DNA from: a virus
Length of the DNA stretch: 49,782 nt
Virus record (IMG/VR): IMGVR_UViG_3300031237_000008
Span: 1 to 49,782 of that record
Reading direction: 5' to 3' (one strand)
Under the pieces are notes generated by a model. It did not search any database. It was not told the DNA's origin and saw only the letters and a program-made list of their open reading frames with translations. Every line of letters begins with the position of its first letter. Position 1 is the stretch's first letter. This document shows positions 14,483 to 18,729 of the stretch, in pieces. The translations under genes were made by a program, and so were the position numbers.

Positions 14483-14713
14483 GTGGACATATCCACAGCC
14501 CGCCGCAAGGCCATCCATGACAGATACAACCACTCTGCCAAGGGCCGGGCGCGGTATCTCCGGTACCGAGCCACGGCACGGGGTCATCTGTTGCGGGATT
14601 TACAGGCGGCATTGCCGGAGCAGCGCCTGATGCGGAAGCTCAGGATGCAGGAGGTGCGGGGTGGCGGCCTATTACAACGAGATGGATGCGTTCGCGGCTG
14701 CGTGGTTGCGTGA
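14483..14713 (+). CDS. hypothetical basic protein
   Basis: 76-aa track ORF with a GTG start. RRKAIHDRYNHSAKGRARYLRY motif. Its 3' end overlaps the methyltransferase start. Confidence 0.4.
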   Translation: MDISTARRKAIHDRYNHSAKGRARYLRYRATARGHLLRDLQAALPEQRLMRKLRMQEVRGGGLLQRDGCVRGCVVA

Positions 14714-15701
14714 GTTAATCAAGGCGGGTCACATCGCTCCGGGGGATGTTGATGAAAGAAGCATATCCGACGTACAGACAGATGACCTTCGAGGATACAC
14801 CCAATGTCACTTCTTCGCTGGCATTGGGGTCTGGAGTTACGCCCTCCGTTGCGCCGGATGGACCGATGACCGTCCGGTTTGGACCGGCTCCTGCCCCTGT
14901 CAGCCGTTCTCGTCGAGCGGCAAGGGGGAGGGTTTTACCGACCCCCGCCACCTCTGGCCTGAGTGGTTCCGGCTCATCCGGGAGTATCGCCCTGTCGCAG
15001 TCTTTGGCGAACAGGTTGGAGCTGCGATTCGACATGGATGGCTCGACCTTGTTCAAGCAGACCTGGAGAGTGAGGGTTACGCCGTCGGGGCGGCAGTTAT
15101 GGGCGCACACAGCCTCGGGGCGCCGCACATCCGGCAAAGACTGTACTTCGTGGCCGACGCCGAACACGCCCAGCGGCGGCCCGAACACGAAGGCGACGGA
15201 GTCACACACGGGCGGCATGGACTTGGACGGCGCGGCGCTACTAGCGAGCTGGGCGACACCGGTAGTGTACGACGCGGAGGGAGGCGGTTCGATAACCGCA
15301 TCGAACAGGAAAGCGGCGGGGTTGGACAGGCCGAGCGGGGCATCCTACGGGACGGCGCTGCGGCACCAAGTCCTGCAAGCATCCTGGAGTACGCCGAGCA
15401 GTCGGGATTGGAAGGACACTCCGGGGATGAGCGCGACGGGAACGAACCCGGACGGCTCAGAGCAGACGCGGCTCGACCAACTTCCAAGGCAAGCCTCACA
15501 AACGGCTTCTGGCGAGACGCCATCTGGCTCCCCTGCCGCGACGGGAAAGCCCGGCCAACTCAACCCGGCCTTTTCCCGCTGGCTCATGGGTCTCCCGCCA
15601 GAGTGGGACGACTGCGCGGTTACGGCAATGCAATCGTCGCCCCGCAAGCGGAGGCGTTCGTGAGGGCCTACATGCAGCGACTCAGGGGGACTACATGTTG
15701 A
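14661..15701 (+). CDS. DNA (cytosine-5) methyltransferase, frame A
   Basis: Motif I FFAGIGV (14811), [10 protein letters not shown] (14895), VI FGEQV (15006), [14 protein letters not shown] (15126), then a low-complexity R/G/E/D stretch, then [14 protein letters not shown] (15621, motif X-like). GTG start with AGGAGG upstream. Confidence 0.85.
14746..15663 (+). CDS. overlapping +1-frame ORF (frame B) carrying W-x-T-P repeats and a motif IX-like [16 protein letters not shown]
   Basis: 305-aa ORF lying wholly inside the C5-MTase gene. SWPTP (15148), SWATP (15247), SWSTP (15382) and [16 protein letters not shown] (15559-15606) fall where frame A is low complexity. Confidence 0.5.
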
Positions 15702-17314
15702 TACGGGGTAATGCGCGCCACATCCCGCTGGCCGATGAGTCGGTGCAGTGCTGCGTTTGCTCTCCTCCATATTGGGGGTTGCGAGATTACGGGGTTCCTG
15801 GCCAGCTCGGCCTGGAGAAGACGCCAGAGGAGTACGTCGCCAACATGGTAGCCGTGTTCCGCGAGGTCAGGAGGGTGCTGAGGCCGGATGGGACGCTGTT
15901 TCTCAACCTCGGCGACTCTTACGCTGGCGGTGGGCGCGGCGGCAACCCGGACGAGTCGCCATTCCGCAAGCAGGCCACGAACACTGGTAGCGTGACGGGG
16001 CGCGCGAAAGACCCCGGCATCGTTCCACTTGGCCTCAAGCCCAAAGACCTGGTGGGCATACCCTGGCGCGTAGCTTTCGCCCTGCAACAGCCTTACTACG
16101 CCGGTCGCATTAAGCGAGTCGAGGACCGTGTCTGGCTGGCCGCCATGATTGACGCGGAGGGATGCATCTTCATCCACAAGCGCAAGGAGGGCCAGTCCAA
16201 CGGGCAGGGATATTCCAGGAAGAACGACAGCTACGGCTCCGGATTGGAAGTCGCTAACTGCTCGGAAGCTGTGGTGAGGCGCTGCATGGAGATTGCCGGG
16301 GCGGGAAGCATCTGTAGCCAGGGCTCGGAGCAGAATAGCCGCCGCAAGCAGGTACTCCACCGCTGGAATCTTCGGTCAAACGAGTGCCGCGATATTCTCC
16401 GCGAAGTGTACCCGCACCTTGTGGCCAAGCAGCAACAGGCCAGGCTGTCCATCGGCTGCCCCAGTTCCGGCGAAAAGGCGGATGCGGCCCACCGCGCTCT
16501 TATGGGACTGCACAACGGAATCGCAACTGATGTGGACTTTCCCCCGCCGGCATCCATGTACGAGCCTGGATGGTGGCTAAGGCAGGATTGTATATGGTCA
16601 AAGTTGAATCCCATGCCGGAGTCAGTGACCGACAGGTGTACCAAATCGCACGAATACATTTTCCTGCTCACGAAGTCGGCGCGGTACTTCTATGACGCGG
16701 AGGCGGTGAAGGAGCCCGGCACGCGCTATGAGTGGAACACGCAGAAGTTCAAGGGCGGCGACCTGACACGGCATCACGGCTCGACTTGCGGCAAGGAAGA
16801 AGGCGACCCGAACGCGGGTCGCAATCTCCGCTCCGTCTGGCACATCGCCACCCAGCCCTACAAGGAAGCCCACTTCGCCACCTTCCCGGAGAAGCTGGTA
16901 GAGCCGTGCATCTTGGCGGGGACGAGCGAGCGGGGTTGCTGCGCGGAGTGCGGTGCGCCGTGGGAGCGGGTGGTGGAGCGCGGACTGACGGCACACGACG
17001 GCGCGACTGATAGCGCCTACAGTCAAGGCACCACGGCAAATCGGCTGGCCCTGCTCCGGCAGGCTGCGCGTGAACGCGGAGAGGAATACTCCAGCGCCCA
17101 CAAGACCCTCGGCTGGAAGCCCACCTGCTCCTGCGGCGCGGCTACCAAGCCCTGCATCGTCCTCGACCCCTTCTGTGGCTCTGGCACGGTAGGCGTGGTC
17201 TGCGCCCGATTCAACCGGGAGTTCATCGGCCTGGAGTTGAACGAGAAGTACATCGAGTTAGCCAAGAAGCGACAGGTCGGAGTCCAGCCATTTCTCGCGG
17301 AGGCTACATGTTGA
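15695..17314 (+). CDS. beta-class N4/N6 DNA methyltransferase with an internal LAGLIDADG-like domain and a zinc ribbon
   Basis: SPPY motif IV near the N-terminus, IWSKLNPMPESV..R..KSHEYIFLLTKS, and motif I DPFCGSGT near the C-terminus. CCAECG...CSCG ribbon. Confidence 0.9.
   Translation: MLIRGNARHIPLADESVQCCVCSPPYWGLRDYGVPGQLGLEKTPEEYVANMVAVFREVRRVLRPDGTLFLNLGDSYAGGGRGGNPDESPFRKQATNTGSVTGRAKDPGIVPLGLKPKDLVGIPWRVAFALQQPYYAGRIKRVEDRVWLAAMIDAEGCIFIHKRKEGQSNGQGYSRKNDSYGSGLEVANCSEAVVRRCMEIAGAGSICSQGSEQNSRRKQVLHRWNLRSNECRDILREVYPHLVAKQQQARLSIGCPSSGEKADAAHRALMGLHNGIATDVDFPPPASMYEPGWWLRQDCIWSKLNPMPESVTDRCTKSHEYIFLLTKSARYFYDAEAVKEPGTRYEWNTQKFKGGDLTRHHGSTCGKEEGDPNAGRNLRSVWHIATQPYKEAHFATFPEKLVEPCILAGTSERGCCAECGAPWERVVERGLTAHDGATDSAYSQGTTANRLALLRQAARERGEEYSSAHKTLGWKPTCSCGAATKPCIVLDPFCGSGTVGVVCARFNREFIGLELNEKYIELAKKRQVGVQPFLAEATC
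16091..16567 (+). other. in-frame LAGLIDADG (I-CreI-like, single-motif) domain inserted into the methyltransferase core
   Basis: VWLAAMIDAEGCIFI, GLEVANCSEAVVRRCMEIAGAGSI and WNLRSNECRDILREVYPHLVAKQQQARL lie between the conserved MTase segments GIPWRVAFALQQ and GWWLRQDCIW. Confidence 0.65.
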
Positions 17315-17338: not shown

Positions 17339-17914
17339 ATGGCATATATACACGGTAGATATCCCTTCCATAGATGCTCCAAGTGCGGAAAGCGGCGTAT
17401 AACATTCGGTGGTGGTTTGTGTTGGCAGTGTAGCGAGTTCCACGGGAAATGCGAGGCATGTGGGAATGGCTTTATCCAGACCGACAAGCAGCACATATAC
17501 TGTTCCCATTCTTGCCGGATACACACCCTGGCAAATCGCCACTACGCTAAACGCAAGAATGCCATCAATGAAAAGGGTCGCGCCAAGTATCACATTCATA
17601 TAGAAAAACAGCGGGCGCGTGGTCGCGCAAGGCAGAGGAAACTCAAGGAGGAGATGATTGCTGCGTATGGCGGCAAGTGTGCCTGCTGCGGGGAATCCGA
17701 ATATCGCTTCATGTCTCTTGACCACATCTACATGGACGGAAAGCAACATCGAGCATTGGTCGGCAGCGGCTCGGCTACATGGATGGCATTAAAACACCAA
17801 GGATGGCCGCAAGATAGATATCGTTTGCTGTGTATGAATTGCAACTTTGCTGCGCGCTTTGGGGTGGTCTGTCCGCATGAAACAAACCAAACATACGGGG
17901 TATCAGAATGCTAA
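17339..17914 (+). CDS. HNH-family endonuclease with an N-terminal zinc ribbon
   Basis: Track ORF 17318-17914 trimmed to ATG 17339. YGGKCACCG...LDHIYMDG...LLCMNCN...CPH. Confidence 0.75.
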   Translation: MAYIHGRYPFHRCSKCGKRRITFGGGLCWQCSEFHGKCEACGNGFIQTDKQHIYCSHSCRIHTLANRHYAKRKNAINEKGRAKYHIHIEKQRARGRARQRKLKEEMIAAYGGKCACCGESEYRFMSLDHIYMDGKQHRALVGSGSATWMALKHQGWPQDRYRLLCMNCNFAARFGVVCPHETNQTYGVSEC

Positions 17915-18729
17915 AAGTAGGAATTTGGGGGGATTTGCAAATACCGTACCTTTGCCCACGGGCCTGGTCTGTTGCCCTGCAAATCTTCAAGGACGCCAAG
18001 CTGGACCTACTCATTCACAACGGGGACTTCATGGACTGTCGCACGCTGACCACTCGCTACCCGGTAGCCTATGGCCCCAAGATGATGGCGGAGATGCGGC
18101 ATGAGGTAGATGCGGCGCGAGGGCGGCTGGCCGAGGCCCACAAGACCATCAAGCCCAAGAAGGCCCGCTGGAACTCGGGCAACCACGAGTTCCGTATCCC
18201 GCGCAGCTTCTGGTCGTCTCCACACGGTAGCCAGATGCTGGGGATAGATACCATCGCAGATGCGGCTGGCGTACCCGCGCTGCTGCAATTCCACAAGTAC
18301 GGCATCAAGTACAGCGGGGAGTACCCGGCAGGGACGTGGATATTGGGCGGGGAGACGCCCTCCGGCGCGAACGATTGCCTTGTTACCCATGGCATGATTT
18401 CCAGCAAGAAGGCTGGCCAGACAGCCAACCGAACCCTGGACGACACCATGGCCAATGTGGTCGTGGGTCACTGTGAGCGGCTGGCTCTGACATGGAAACA
18501 CGCCCCAGGTTGGCGCGACTTCTTTGCCATCGAGGGAGGCAATCTGTCATTGTTCTCTACCCCGCAGGGTCGGGACATCCTGACGAACTACCCGTTCAAT
18601 TCCCCTGACCACCTCAACAAGCAGCAGGGCATCACCATCTTGTACCACGATGCTGGCCAGTGGTGGCCCTTCATTATCCGCATCAACCGGGGCCGCGCCA
18701 TGTGGCAAGGCAAGTTGTATAAAGACTAG
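17908..18729 (+). CDS. calcineurin-like metallophosphoesterase
   Basis: WGDLQIP, NGDFMD, SGNHEF, THG and VGHCE motifs appear in canonical order. Confidence 0.85.
   Translation: MLKVGIWGDLQIPYLCPRAWSVALQIFKDAKLDLLIHNGDFMDCRTLTTRYPVAYGPKMMAEMRHEVDAARGRLAEAHKTIKPKKARWNSGNHEFRIPRSFWSSPHGSQMLGIDTIADAAGVPALLQFHKYGIKYSGEYPAGTWILGGETPSGANDCLVTHGMISSKKAGQTANRTLDDTMANVVVGHCERLALTWKHAPGWRDFFAIEGGNLSLFSTPQGRDILTNYPFNSPDHLNKQQGITILYHDAGQWWPFIIRINRGRAMWQGKLYKD

Follow-up and report, generated by a model that had tools for sequence, protein, structure and literature searches.

Two overlapping reading frames at one locus

In the window (the whole 49,782-nucleotide stretch of viral DNA that was analysed), a C5 cytosine methyltransferase gene, frame A, holds a second long open reading frame, frame B, on the same strand:

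14650..14654, + strand: GGAGG Shine-Dalgarno sequence of frame A, 6 nt 5' of the GTG at 14661 (read from the sequence)
14661..15701, + strand: frame A ORF, GTG start, 346 aa (from the ORF list)
14746..15663, + strand: frame B ORF, ATG start, 305 aa, +1 relative to A (from the ORF list)
15695..17314, + strand: downstream N6/N4 DNA methyltransferase gene, its ATG overlapping the frame A stop (ATGTTGA)

Base-by-base checking finds both ORFs at these coordinates, which bears out an earlier note on this DNA that had described two overlapping same-strand frames, with their motifs, both open over 918 nt. Frame B is nested entirely within frame A and spans 88% of it. Frame A runs from catalytic motifs through a middle region rich in G, R, E and D to a 14-residue motif X-like segment; frame B has S-W-x-T-P at 15148, 15247 and 15382 and a 16-residue motif IX-like segment at 15559-15606. 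The length of frame B is beyond chance: when the codons of the window's frame A were shuffled synonymously, a +1 ORF of that length appeared in 0.4% of trials.

Conservation of the arrangement

The arrangement was followed through about 130 related loci (48-71% GC) from phages, viral contigs and bacterial genomes; these loci are phylogenetically related, and because they share ancestry, counts of loci overstate independence. It is nearly constant among them, one frame holding motifs IV, VIII and X, and the +1 frame the W-x-T-P elements and QLNPAxSRWLMGxPxEW. Of the 73 genome loci, which were collected by means of the catalytic domain alone, 44 have motifs VIII and X in frame 0 with the IX-like motif in +1, another 16 fit save for one motif missed by the regular expression, and only 3 have another frame relation. 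The 52 viral-contig loci and the phage records show the same arrangement, the overlap is conserved in phages of Proteobacteria and of other phyla, and frame B never occurs without frame A among the loci sampled. Checking homologues for the openness of both frames, as the earlier note had proposed, found dual openness in nearly every one examined. Its suggestion of a family-wide dual-frame architecture, with homologues deposited in either frame, proved sound: PHROG 363 corresponds to A and PHROG 1008 to B, and GenBank phage records annotate one frame or the other. It would appear that thousands of related phage genes share the dual-frame arrangement.

This conservation bears on the idea that the overlap is an artefact of two compensating assembly indels or a pseudogene, with B open merely through G+C-rich composition. 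The gene does have 64% G+C, a composition where long spurious ORFs are common, and PGAP (NCBI) calls an E. coli prophage homologue as two pseudogene fragments. In that "pseudogene", however, both the 400-codon ORF and its 334-codon frame B are intact. The frame relation is constant from 48% to 71% G+C, in isolate genomes and cultured phages (epsilon15, Vibrio phage Marilyn) as well, while the +2 frame in the same genes is open for just 40-140 codons, and the shuffle nulls are rejected. An artefact or decay is hardly credible; paired indels or decay, one of three options offered at the outset, are refuted by about 130 loci with the same architecture, isolate genomes included.

Frame A, a proposed catalytic chain

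Frame A is proposed to be the catalytic (alpha-like) subunit, in which a linker separates motifs I-like to VIII from a C-terminus that is motif X-like. Its parts are as follows:

14661..15158, + strand: frame A catalytic region with the YYNE N-terminus, where A is the selected frame
15159..15503, + strand: frame A linker, rich in G, R, E, D and A, stop-free, protein sequence unconserved
15504..15551, + strand: conserved 16-residue segment of frame A, A third position most variable (per-site diversity, 48 loci)
15609..15662, + strand: motif X-like segment of frame A, A third position most variable, GNA invariant (48 loci)

PHROG 363 matches frame A over its full length (E 1e-82). The match to PF00145 scores 64.5 bits (cut-off 22) and covers only residues 75-168, or 66-163 of the 324 profile positions; TIGR00675 scores 47 bits, under its cut-off of 100.65. 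Significant alignment to PF00145 or M.HhaI is limited to residues 70-165, spanning motifs IV-VIII, where pairing with M.HhaI 71-170 (PCQpFS/PCQaFS, GEQV/MENV, HIRQRLY/QKRERIY) places catalytic motifs IV (PCQ), VI (ENV-like) and VIII (QxRxR) in order. The canonical order and spacing once claimed for the frame A motifs fail on spacing, FFAGIG lying only about 20 residues before PCQ; the distance from motif I to PCQ is about 40-60 residues in M.HhaI-type enzymes. The alignment of FFAGIG to LFAGLGG of M.HhaI is weak and non-significant. A strand-helix-strand (YYNE...) precedes FFAGIG in the model of a homologue, and the motif order in frame A may be permuted.

The model in question is an AlphaFold2 prediction for the homologue P0124 rather than for the window protein. 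It has pLDDT of about 90 over residues 1-170, and its best Foldseek matches are M.HhaI, M.HaeIII, DNMT2 and DNMT1 (E about 1e-7), so that the family is predicted, via this homologue, to have the large-domain fold of C5 methyltransferases. Across 14661-15158 the most variable site is the third codon position of frame A (24 loci). In the linker (15159-15503) it is the first codon position of A that varies most, and the sequence is alignable in frame B only.

Frame B, a proposed recognition chain with its own start

Frame B is proposed to be the recognition (beta-like) subunit, made up of modules and the motif IX-like segment:

14741..14784, + strand: start region of frame B, with GGGGGA and then ATGs at 14746, 14752 and 14782, inside the conserved GDVDERSI..D of frame A
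14746..14976, + strand: frame B N-terminal extension, aa 1-77, rich in S, T, P and G; open, sequence unconstrained, predicted disordered
14977..15135, + strand: doubly constrained stretch, where B aa 78-130 (predicted helix and beta-hairpin, SLANRL...ASGRRTSG) lie over motifs VI-VIII of A
15148..15246, + strand: frame B module 1, 33 aa, same module sequence in unrelated loci
15247..15381, + strand: frame B module 2, 45 aa, same module in P0054 and P0001
15382..15500, + strand: frame B module 3, 38 aa, the most widespread module
15552..15606, + strand: frame B motif IX-like segment, overlapping A coding sequence, near-invariant at all three codon positions

By sequence analysis, frame B possesses conserved initiation signals of its own. 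Frame-B ATGs recur at fixed offsets (+6, +24 and +36) across 93 loci. In the E-R-S of frame A, 37% of loci use AGG for the arginine (8% in the rest of A) and 75% use AGY for the serine (41% in the rest of A); the AGG-AGY codon choice creates an AGGAG 8 nt before a frame-B ATG. A Shine-Dalgarno sequence with an ATG for frame B is present in 77 of the 93 loci, and the window's own is a weaker version (AGA AGC). B-type database proteins begin at the same place as the predicted frame-B start.

PHROG 1008 matches frame B with E 6e-25, and 11,410 cluster representatives (50% identity clusters) match it, a count that takes in frame-fused chimeras. Frame B has no match by HMMER in Pfam, NCBIfam or PDB sequences. 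The number of W-x-T-P modules per frame B ranges from 1 to 7 across the family. In the AlphaFold2 model of frame B, aa 1-77 have pLDDT of 40-50, and synonymous variation of A is not lowered there (observed/expected 1.2-1.36); aa 78-130 reach 83-90. The confident parts are only this helix-hairpin and short C-terminal helices. The modules are poorly modelled (pLDDT 42-55), with 85 at aa 230-240 in the module 3 region, and Foldseek gives no meaningful fold match against the PDB. AlphaFold2 of a naturally fused homologue likewise gives pLDDT of 30-45 over the module region, too low to be informative on a docking of the modules on the catalytic domain.

Over 15552-15606 the third position of frame B is the most variable, many sites are invariant (48 loci), and amino-acid identity is.74 in B vs.59 in A. 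Over 15609-15662 frame B is a mere basic tail, ending in TGA at 15661-15663. Going by patterns, the motif X-like GNAIV (frame A) and the motif IX-like NPxxSRWLMGxPxxW (frame B) are thus not in one chain. For both labels, which the earlier note had introduced, the resemblance of pattern stands, and HMMER confirmation does not: profiles of the two short segments find no matches in PDB or Pfam.

Selection on each frame

Stop avoidance was measured against nulls made by synonymous shuffling of the other frame. Frame B is stop-free over the catalytic region in 60 of 67 loci (15.3 expected), and frame A, with B shuffled, over the module region in 66 of 67 (3.4 expected). The N-terminal part of B (14746-14976) is free of stops in 64 of 66 loci vs 28.9 expected, and 14977-15135 is without a frame-B stop in 66 of 66 vs 27.9. 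A control stretch directly upstream of the B start is stop-free in 17 of 66 (28.2 expected); stop avoidance in frame B sets in at its predicted start. Each frame is held stop-free even where only the other is conserved.

Substitutions give the same kind of map. Frame A is selected at 14661-15158 and 15609-15660, frame B across the modules and at 15552-15606, and both frames at about 14975-15135. Global protein alignment of the middle region failed in either frame because the modules are mosaic, and it was replaced by frame-agnostic blastn pairs, in which module-region mismatches at B codon positions 1/2/3 are.20/.13/.40 and.09/.06/.29. The stretch of B that is modelled with confidence (pLDDT 83-90) is the very one in which synonymous differences in A are down to 0.38-0.78 of expectation. 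A synonymous-constraint check, proposed earlier for 14950-15620, came out positive, though mainly at 14900-15135 instead of over that whole span. A plot of GC by codon position is uninformative at 59-64% G+C, since G-rich first positions of frame A mimic a GC3 signal for B.

These patterns can be set against recoding, in which ribosomes would shift +1 into B once past motif VIII and might shift back by -1 before X, to make one polypeptide with the order I-VIII, recognition region, IX, X. Along the DNA the canonical motif order is indeed obtained only by reading A, then B, then A, and databases hold one-frame proteins with catalytic part and modules, with a clean junction right after YWVA in P0197 (RefSeq MULTISPECIES), P0124 and P0133. 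Yet B is stop-free for about 130 codons 5' of the would-be shift site, where it has its conserved Shine-Dalgarno sequence and ATG, and A is stop-free through the entire module region and open downstream, which a shift does not need. A shift site would have no space, since the first WPTP and motif VIII's YFVA strand share nucleotides; a canonical -1 slippery heptamer between IX and X is seen in just 2 of 67 loci, and the boundary of motif VIII is free of homopolymers. At the 3' end, constraint switches from A to B and back to A within 150 nt. Fusion junctions fall at arbitrary positions, some before motif VIII, as random indels in a doubly open gene would give. Two compensating recoding events, the second of the options first listed, are disfavoured by the upkeep of both frames and by the lack of a conserved slippery site, and we consider recoding very unlikely.

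Two related ideas were tried and set aside. The fused database proteins were considered as a sign of a single-chain ancestor or of frameshifting; their junctions are scattered, many of them contain the A linker, and just 3 of the 73 genome loci deviate. The other idea, phase variation through slippage of a homopolymer at the boundary of motif VIII, was dropped, as no runs are found there.

A probable two-subunit enzyme

Both ORFs are under selection, with the constrained segments of each mapped. The locus probably encodes two polypeptides from overlapping same-strand genes, a catalytic A and a recognition B, that form one enzyme. An overprinted second gene or subunit, the first of the three options in the earlier note, is the one favoured by selection on B and by its own initiation signals. 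Frame A would supply the catalytic large domain of a C5 methyltransferase (motifs I-like to VIII plus the motif X-like C-terminus), its two conserved parts bridged by a linker of about 115 residues without conserved sequence. It is proposed that this linker exists because the same DNA codes for something else in the +1 frame. For frame B, a ribosome-binding site of its own about 30 codons inside A would direct the synthesis of a chain of four parts: a disordered extension of about 75 residues, the conserved helix and hairpin, three W-x-T-P modules of about 36 residues each, and the IX-like segment. It would correspond to the canonical small domain (target-recognition region and motif IX), with the modules setting sequence specificity and the helix-hairpin a candidate A-B interface. 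Assembly of A and B into a single active enzyme would follow the example of M.EcoHK31I, for whose alpha and beta it was shown by experiment. We infer a recognition role for B, an association of B with A, and a need for both chains in methylation.

Points against the two-chain reading are the 75-residue N-terminal extension of B, which is unconstrained, and fusions in which catalytic part and modules share one frame, present at a minority of loci and in many database proteins. A single-chain form may also work.

Frame B might also be translated and yet be no methyltransferase subunit, being instead a DNA-binding, regulatory or anti-defence protein overprinted on the methyltransferase gene. In favour of this, B is plainly under selection, and the searches of Pfam, NCBIfam, PDB sequences and PDB folds offer no match to place it. 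Against this, B is located exactly where canonical enzymes have the recognition region and motif IX, frame A is without conserved sequence in that region, and B is always accompanied by A in the loci sampled. Frameshift variants that link the C-terminal half of B to the catalytic domain persist in genomes, and M.EcoHK31I provides a precedent of like layout. A function apart from the methyltransferase is unlikely.

Comparison with known systems

M.EcoHK31I was reportedly first described by Lee, Kam & Shaw in 1995, with a beta chain said to have 176 aa. Its alpha chain bears motifs I-VIII as well as X, its beta chain motif IX, and neither chain is dispensable; the N-terminal portion of beta is important for association, and internal beta-frame ATGs are usable as starts (PMC2836561, PMC3404938). 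The window gene, as likened to the published description, is also a C5 cytosine methyltransferase in which a smaller chain is coded wholly inside the gene of the larger one, on the same strand and in another frame. It too has a separate predicted start for the embedded chain, and the placing of its X-like pattern with I-VIII in the large chain and of its IX-like pattern in the small one, patterns to which profile and structure searches gave no match, would fit the same division of motifs. Unlike M.EcoHK31I, which belongs to a restriction-modification system, it sits in a phage-like contig beside another methyltransferase, and its frame B has 305 aa, unlike the beta chain (reportedly 176 aa), and bears a variable array of 1-7 W-x-T-P modules. 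The recognition domain of M.EcoHK31I was published as part of alpha, whereas here B holds the sequence under selection between VIII and X, and A has an unconstrained linker there.

The earlier note had offered M.AquI as the split-enzyme parallel. It holds as a two-chain C5 methyltransferase, a natural enzyme split into two polypeptides within the variable region, but M.EcoHK31I, with beta inside the alpha gene, is closer. M.AquI is split linearly, its beta chain having the rest of the variable region and motifs IX-X; in the window, I-VIII share their frame and ORF with the motif X-like segment, and the second chain lies inside the first gene in an alternative frame.

M.SPRI, M.Phi3TI and their relatives are multispecific C5 methyltransferases of Bacillus phages with tandem target-recognising modules between VIII and IX, the number and type of which vary between phages. 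Unlike the window gene, each of these is a single polypeptide read in one frame, with a module consensus other than W-x-T-P. In the Rz/Rz1 spanin genes of lambdoid phages, one gene is nested, in the +1 frame, within a second gene of the same strand, and their products act in one complex. Rz1 is short and covers part of Rz, whereas the overlap here is about 300 codons; and unlike in Rz/Rz1, folded and unfolded segments alternate between A and B, as predicted, save at 14977-15135, which is constrained in both. A search of the literature on overlapping genes or frameshifts in phage cytosine methyltransferases found no account of a dual-frame family, only M.EcoHK31I. Relative to that enzyme, the new features are the scale, which is that of a whole family, an overlap that is nearly complete, and the array of modules in the embedded frame.

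Significance

Gene callers allow one frame, and as a result databases hold three kinds of product from this family: A proteins named DNA cytosine methyltransferase, thousands of B hypothetical proteins, and A/B chimeras made by indels. Recognising the dual-frame architecture would correct the annotation of a very large family, and it turns M.EcoHK31I from a single curiosity of 1995 into a common design. For the question of how a single stretch of DNA can serve two proteins, this same-strand overlap of about 300 codons, with its thousands of natural variants, is rich test material. Should specificity be set by the modules, the phage methylation patterns that evade restriction could be predicted and engineered through them.

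A broader reading, for which the odds seem to us a little under even, is that a large clade of phage and prophage C5 methyltransferases consists of obligate two-chain enzymes, in which a swappable array of 1-7 W-x-T-P modules in the +1 frame is the specificity subunit and the variable region of A is the array's shadow. If so, the clade would comprise at least 11,000 clusters (50% identity) matching frame B, fused chimeras included, and the recognition domain assigned to M.EcoHK31I alpha would need to be revisited. Shuffling of frame-B modules would then let phages change or multiply their methylation specificities while the catalytic chain is left untouched.

Two open frames in one methyltransferase gene

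The C5 cytosine methyltransferase gene of the window can be read in two frames that overlap by 918 nt, the whole of frame B being contained in frame A:

14661-15701, + strand: frame A, GTG start after GGAGG, 346 aa, open
14746-15663, + strand: frame B, ATG start, 305 aa, +1 relative to A, open

Checked on the window sequence, the motif strings and coordinates listed in the earlier note are all right. The Pfam DNA_methylase match in frame A covers residues 75-168 only, which align to M.HhaI 71-170 (motifs IV to VIII). Two PHROG families, both labelled "DNA methyltransferase", match frame A at full length (PHROG 363, E 1e-82) and frame B over residues 10-298 (PHROG 1008, E 6e-25), so proteins of each frame are already in phage databases; database protein P0122 is identical to frame A.

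By tblastn, frame B matches 225 GenBank phage records, with hosts that include Vibrio, Salmonella, Burkholderia and a cyanobacterium, and a single alignment spans at least 80% of it in 91 of the 225. The two frames are open alike in epsilon15, Vibrio phage Marilyn, Cylindrospermopsis phage Cr-LKS3 and Pseudomonas phage PMG1, although the PMG1 frame A lacks any start codon before residue 113 of its open stretch. Of the four deposited annotations, two give frame A and two frame B. Among 50 loci from phage records and IMG/VR contigs (48-71% G+C), nearly all have a +1 open stretch of 230-380 codons; in +2 the open stretch is just 40-140 codons. For a sample favouring neither C-terminus, 80 genome loci were fetched by catalytic-domain patterns alone. 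Motif IV is recognisable in 73 of them: 44 place motif VIII and an X-like motif in frame 0 with an IX-like motif in +1 (labels IX and X denoting pattern-level resemblance), 16 more fit except for one motif missed by the regular expressions, and only 3 have another frame relation. Exhaustive HMMER searching matches frame B to 11,410 cluster representatives at 50% identity, a total that counts frame-fused chimeras too (8,361 have E ≤ 1e-10); most of the best 150 of the 11,410 share the start position of the window's frame B. The earlier note had put forward a family-wide dual-frame architecture with either frame deposited, and this is borne out by the homologous loci, nearly all of those examined having both frames open, and by the GenBank annotations. 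Two Xenorhabdus loci, L077 and L096 (51-52% G+C), are minimal members, with a single W-x-T-P repeat module in B and an A linker of only ~50 residues.

Selection on both frames

In 67 distinct loci, synonymous codons of each region's conserved frame were shuffled and stops counted in the other frame.

Stop-free loci, observed vs expected (the counts overstate independence because the loci are related)
Catalytic region, frame B: 60/67 vs 15.3
Module region, frame A: 66/67 vs 3.4
N-terminal part of B: 64/66 vs 28.9
Stretch of B that lies over motifs VI-VIII: 66/66 vs 27.9
Control, the 25 codons preceding the B start: 17/66 vs 28.2

The effect is large, and module content varies between the loci. 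Frame B, which might have proved broken by stops in most homologues, is stop-free over the catalytic region in 60/67. Selection keeps A and B both open, and decay of the gene is a poor explanation. Just upstream of the frame-B start (window ~14661-14740), +1 stops exceed the null (1.21 vs 0.76 per 25 codons, 66 loci), which could reflect selection against earlier frame-B initiation, or chance.

At 14664-15158 the most variable position is codon position 3 of frame A, which makes A the coding frame that purifying selection acts on there. The middle region is a mosaic of modules, which makes global alignment impossible, and it was compared by nucleotide-level blastn pairs with no frame assumed. 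Module-region mismatches at B codon positions 1/2/3 are.20/.13/.40 in pairs of 65-80% identity and.09/.06/.29 in pairs of 80-97% identity, so B is the selected frame in this region; A varies most at codon position 1 and so does no more than stay open. Constraint along the 3' end switches from A to B and back to A in the 48 loci measured, whose spacing is identical:

15504-15550, + strand: A-like constraint
15552-15606, + strand: B-like constraint, nearly invariant
15609-15660, + strand: A-like constraint

A synonymous-site test of frame A in 58 loci gives observed/expected ratios of 1.2-1.36 at 14667-14900, and down to 0.38-0.8 from ~14900 to 15135; the reduction lies mainly at 14900-15135 and not across 14950-15620, the range proposed earlier for such a test. 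In the frame-B model only one long element is confident, at pLDDT 83-90: a helix (aa 78-97) plus β-hairpin (aa 103-125). The low-synonymous interval coincides with this helix-hairpin, which makes 14977-15135 a stretch under apparent constraint in both frames. Model residues 1-70 have pLDDT 40-50, and the N-terminal 75 residues of B are unconstrained in sequence.

The frame-B start

The window has three candidate starts:

14746, 14752 and 14782, + strand: ATGs of frame B

Across loci, GAT-Gxx codon pairs give rise to B ATGs at fixed offsets (+6, +24, +36) from a conserved 11-residue frame A segment. In E-R-S, the Arg is coded AGG in 34/93 loci, vs 8% of other Arg codons in A, and the Ser after it AGY in 62/83, vs 41% elsewhere; this choice yields AGGAG 8 nt ahead of the +24 ATG. 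A Shine-Dalgarno-like element precedes a frame-B ATG in 77/93 loci, and the window's is weaker (GGGGGA; AGA AGC). These signals indicate that frame B has its own start and, with selection on both frames, support the earlier suggestion of an overprinted second gene or subunit.

Recoding and fused proteins

A ribosome shift from A to B is a poor explanation. It needs neither B open upstream nor A open downstream, and both are selected; the YFVA strand of motif VIII and the first WPTP lie on the same nucleotides; and between the IX-like motif and the X-like one a canonical -1 heptamer is present in only 2/67 loci, which disfavours the two compensating recoding events once suggested. No homopolymers were found at the motif VIII boundary.

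Many database proteins cover, end to end, a chimeric query made of the catalytic part of A and the C-terminal half of B. Their junctions are scattered, some ahead of motif VIII and some after frame-A linker stretches, as expected of random indels, real or sequencing, in a doubly open gene. Any indel in such a gene gives a long ORF, and chimeras therefore contaminate protein databases. P0135, P0129, P0177 (21 member sequences) and others combine both frames at arbitrary junctions, P0135 reading A, B, A in succession. A few fused proteins are clean and recurrent in RefSeq (P0197). In fused loci L057, L058 and L059 (of P0197, P0133 and P0124), catalytic part and modules share one frame, the -1 frame, with linker and X-like motif, keeps 165-230 codons open, and the +1 frame, that of the B N-terminus, is open as far as the first GWPTP. 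The clean fused proteins may have arisen recently by frameshift or may work as single chains; alternatively, the motif X piece may be made separately.

A probable two-subunit methyltransferase

The canonical C5-methyltransferase, as outlined in a section of PMC3404938, has a large domain that contains motifs I-VIII as well as X, plus a small domain with the variable (recognition) region and motif IX. Frame A contains the large-domain elements, connected by an unconstrained linker, and the only conserved sequence at the small-domain position lies in B: the helix-hairpin, the W-x-T-P modules (1-7 per locus, mode 3, three in the window, spaced ~36 residues) and the IX-like segment. No PDB fold match was found for the frame-B model, and the module region came out with no confident fold in both AlphaFold runs, one on frame B and one on a fused homologue. 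Experimental precedent comes from M.EcoHK31I, whose smaller β chain, carrying motif IX, is encoded inside the gene of the larger α chain in another frame, and for which passages of PMC2836561 describe that both chains are needed, that the N-terminal part of β affects association and that internal ATGs of the β frame are able to initiate.

Given this precedent and the split of domains between A and B, the locus most likely encodes a two-subunit methyltransferase of M.EcoHK31I type. We infer that A would be the catalytic chain and B the recognition chain, translated from its own start, and that the two would associate, with methylation dependent on B. The likeness is one of arrangement. The published description of M.EcoHK31I puts the recognition domain in the large chain; here the selected, putative recognition sequence is in the embedded frame.

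Neighbourhood and N-terminal order

15695-17314, + strand: N6/N4 DNA methyltransferase, with three separate stretches matching Pfam PF01555
9264-10253: PD-(D/E)XK nuclease, neighbouring gene
17908-18729: metallophosphoesterase, neighbouring gene
14715-15218, 15077-15523 and 15345-15770, - strand: antisense ORFs, three in all and 141-167 aa long, across the gene of frames A and B

Antisense ORFs of such size are common at this G+C content. The ATG of the N6/N4 methyltransferase gene overlaps the frame A stop (ATGTTGA), which suggests that the two genes are translationally coupled. A ~160-aa insert interrupts the downstream gene. The WLAAMIDAEGCIFI within this insert resembles a LAGLIDADG homing-endonuclease motif; no such motif is detected there by Pfam.

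At the frame A N-terminus (14661-14900), the motif I-like FFAGIG stands just ~20 residues ahead of PCQ. In the model of the homologue P0124, FFAGIG is preceded by a strand (YYNE), then a helix and another strand, so elements that usually follow motif I (motifs II-III) seem to precede it, and the phage/prophage family may have a permuted N-terminal order.

Novelty and annotation

For a single restriction-modification enzyme, the embedded-subunit principle reportedly goes back to 1995. In the literature searched, we found no description of the dual-frame arrangement for the phage/prophage C5-methyltransferase family. What appears to be new is the scale (thousands of genes), the near-complete overlap of A and B, the evidence for a selected recognition sequence in the embedded frame instead of the large chain, the array of modules, which varies, and the doubly constrained stretch.

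In the prophage of E. coli ECCTRSRTH03 (chromosome NZ_CP041110.1; positions 753-1955 of locus L141), PGAP calls two "incomplete" pseudogene fragments in a copy that is intact, with a 400-codon ORF in frame A and a 334-codon ORF in frame B. The same double annotation occurs in at least 8 complete E. coli genomes among the matches listed. The consequences for annotation are apparently new as well: either frame is deposited, indels give chimeras, and an intact gene is called a pseudogene.
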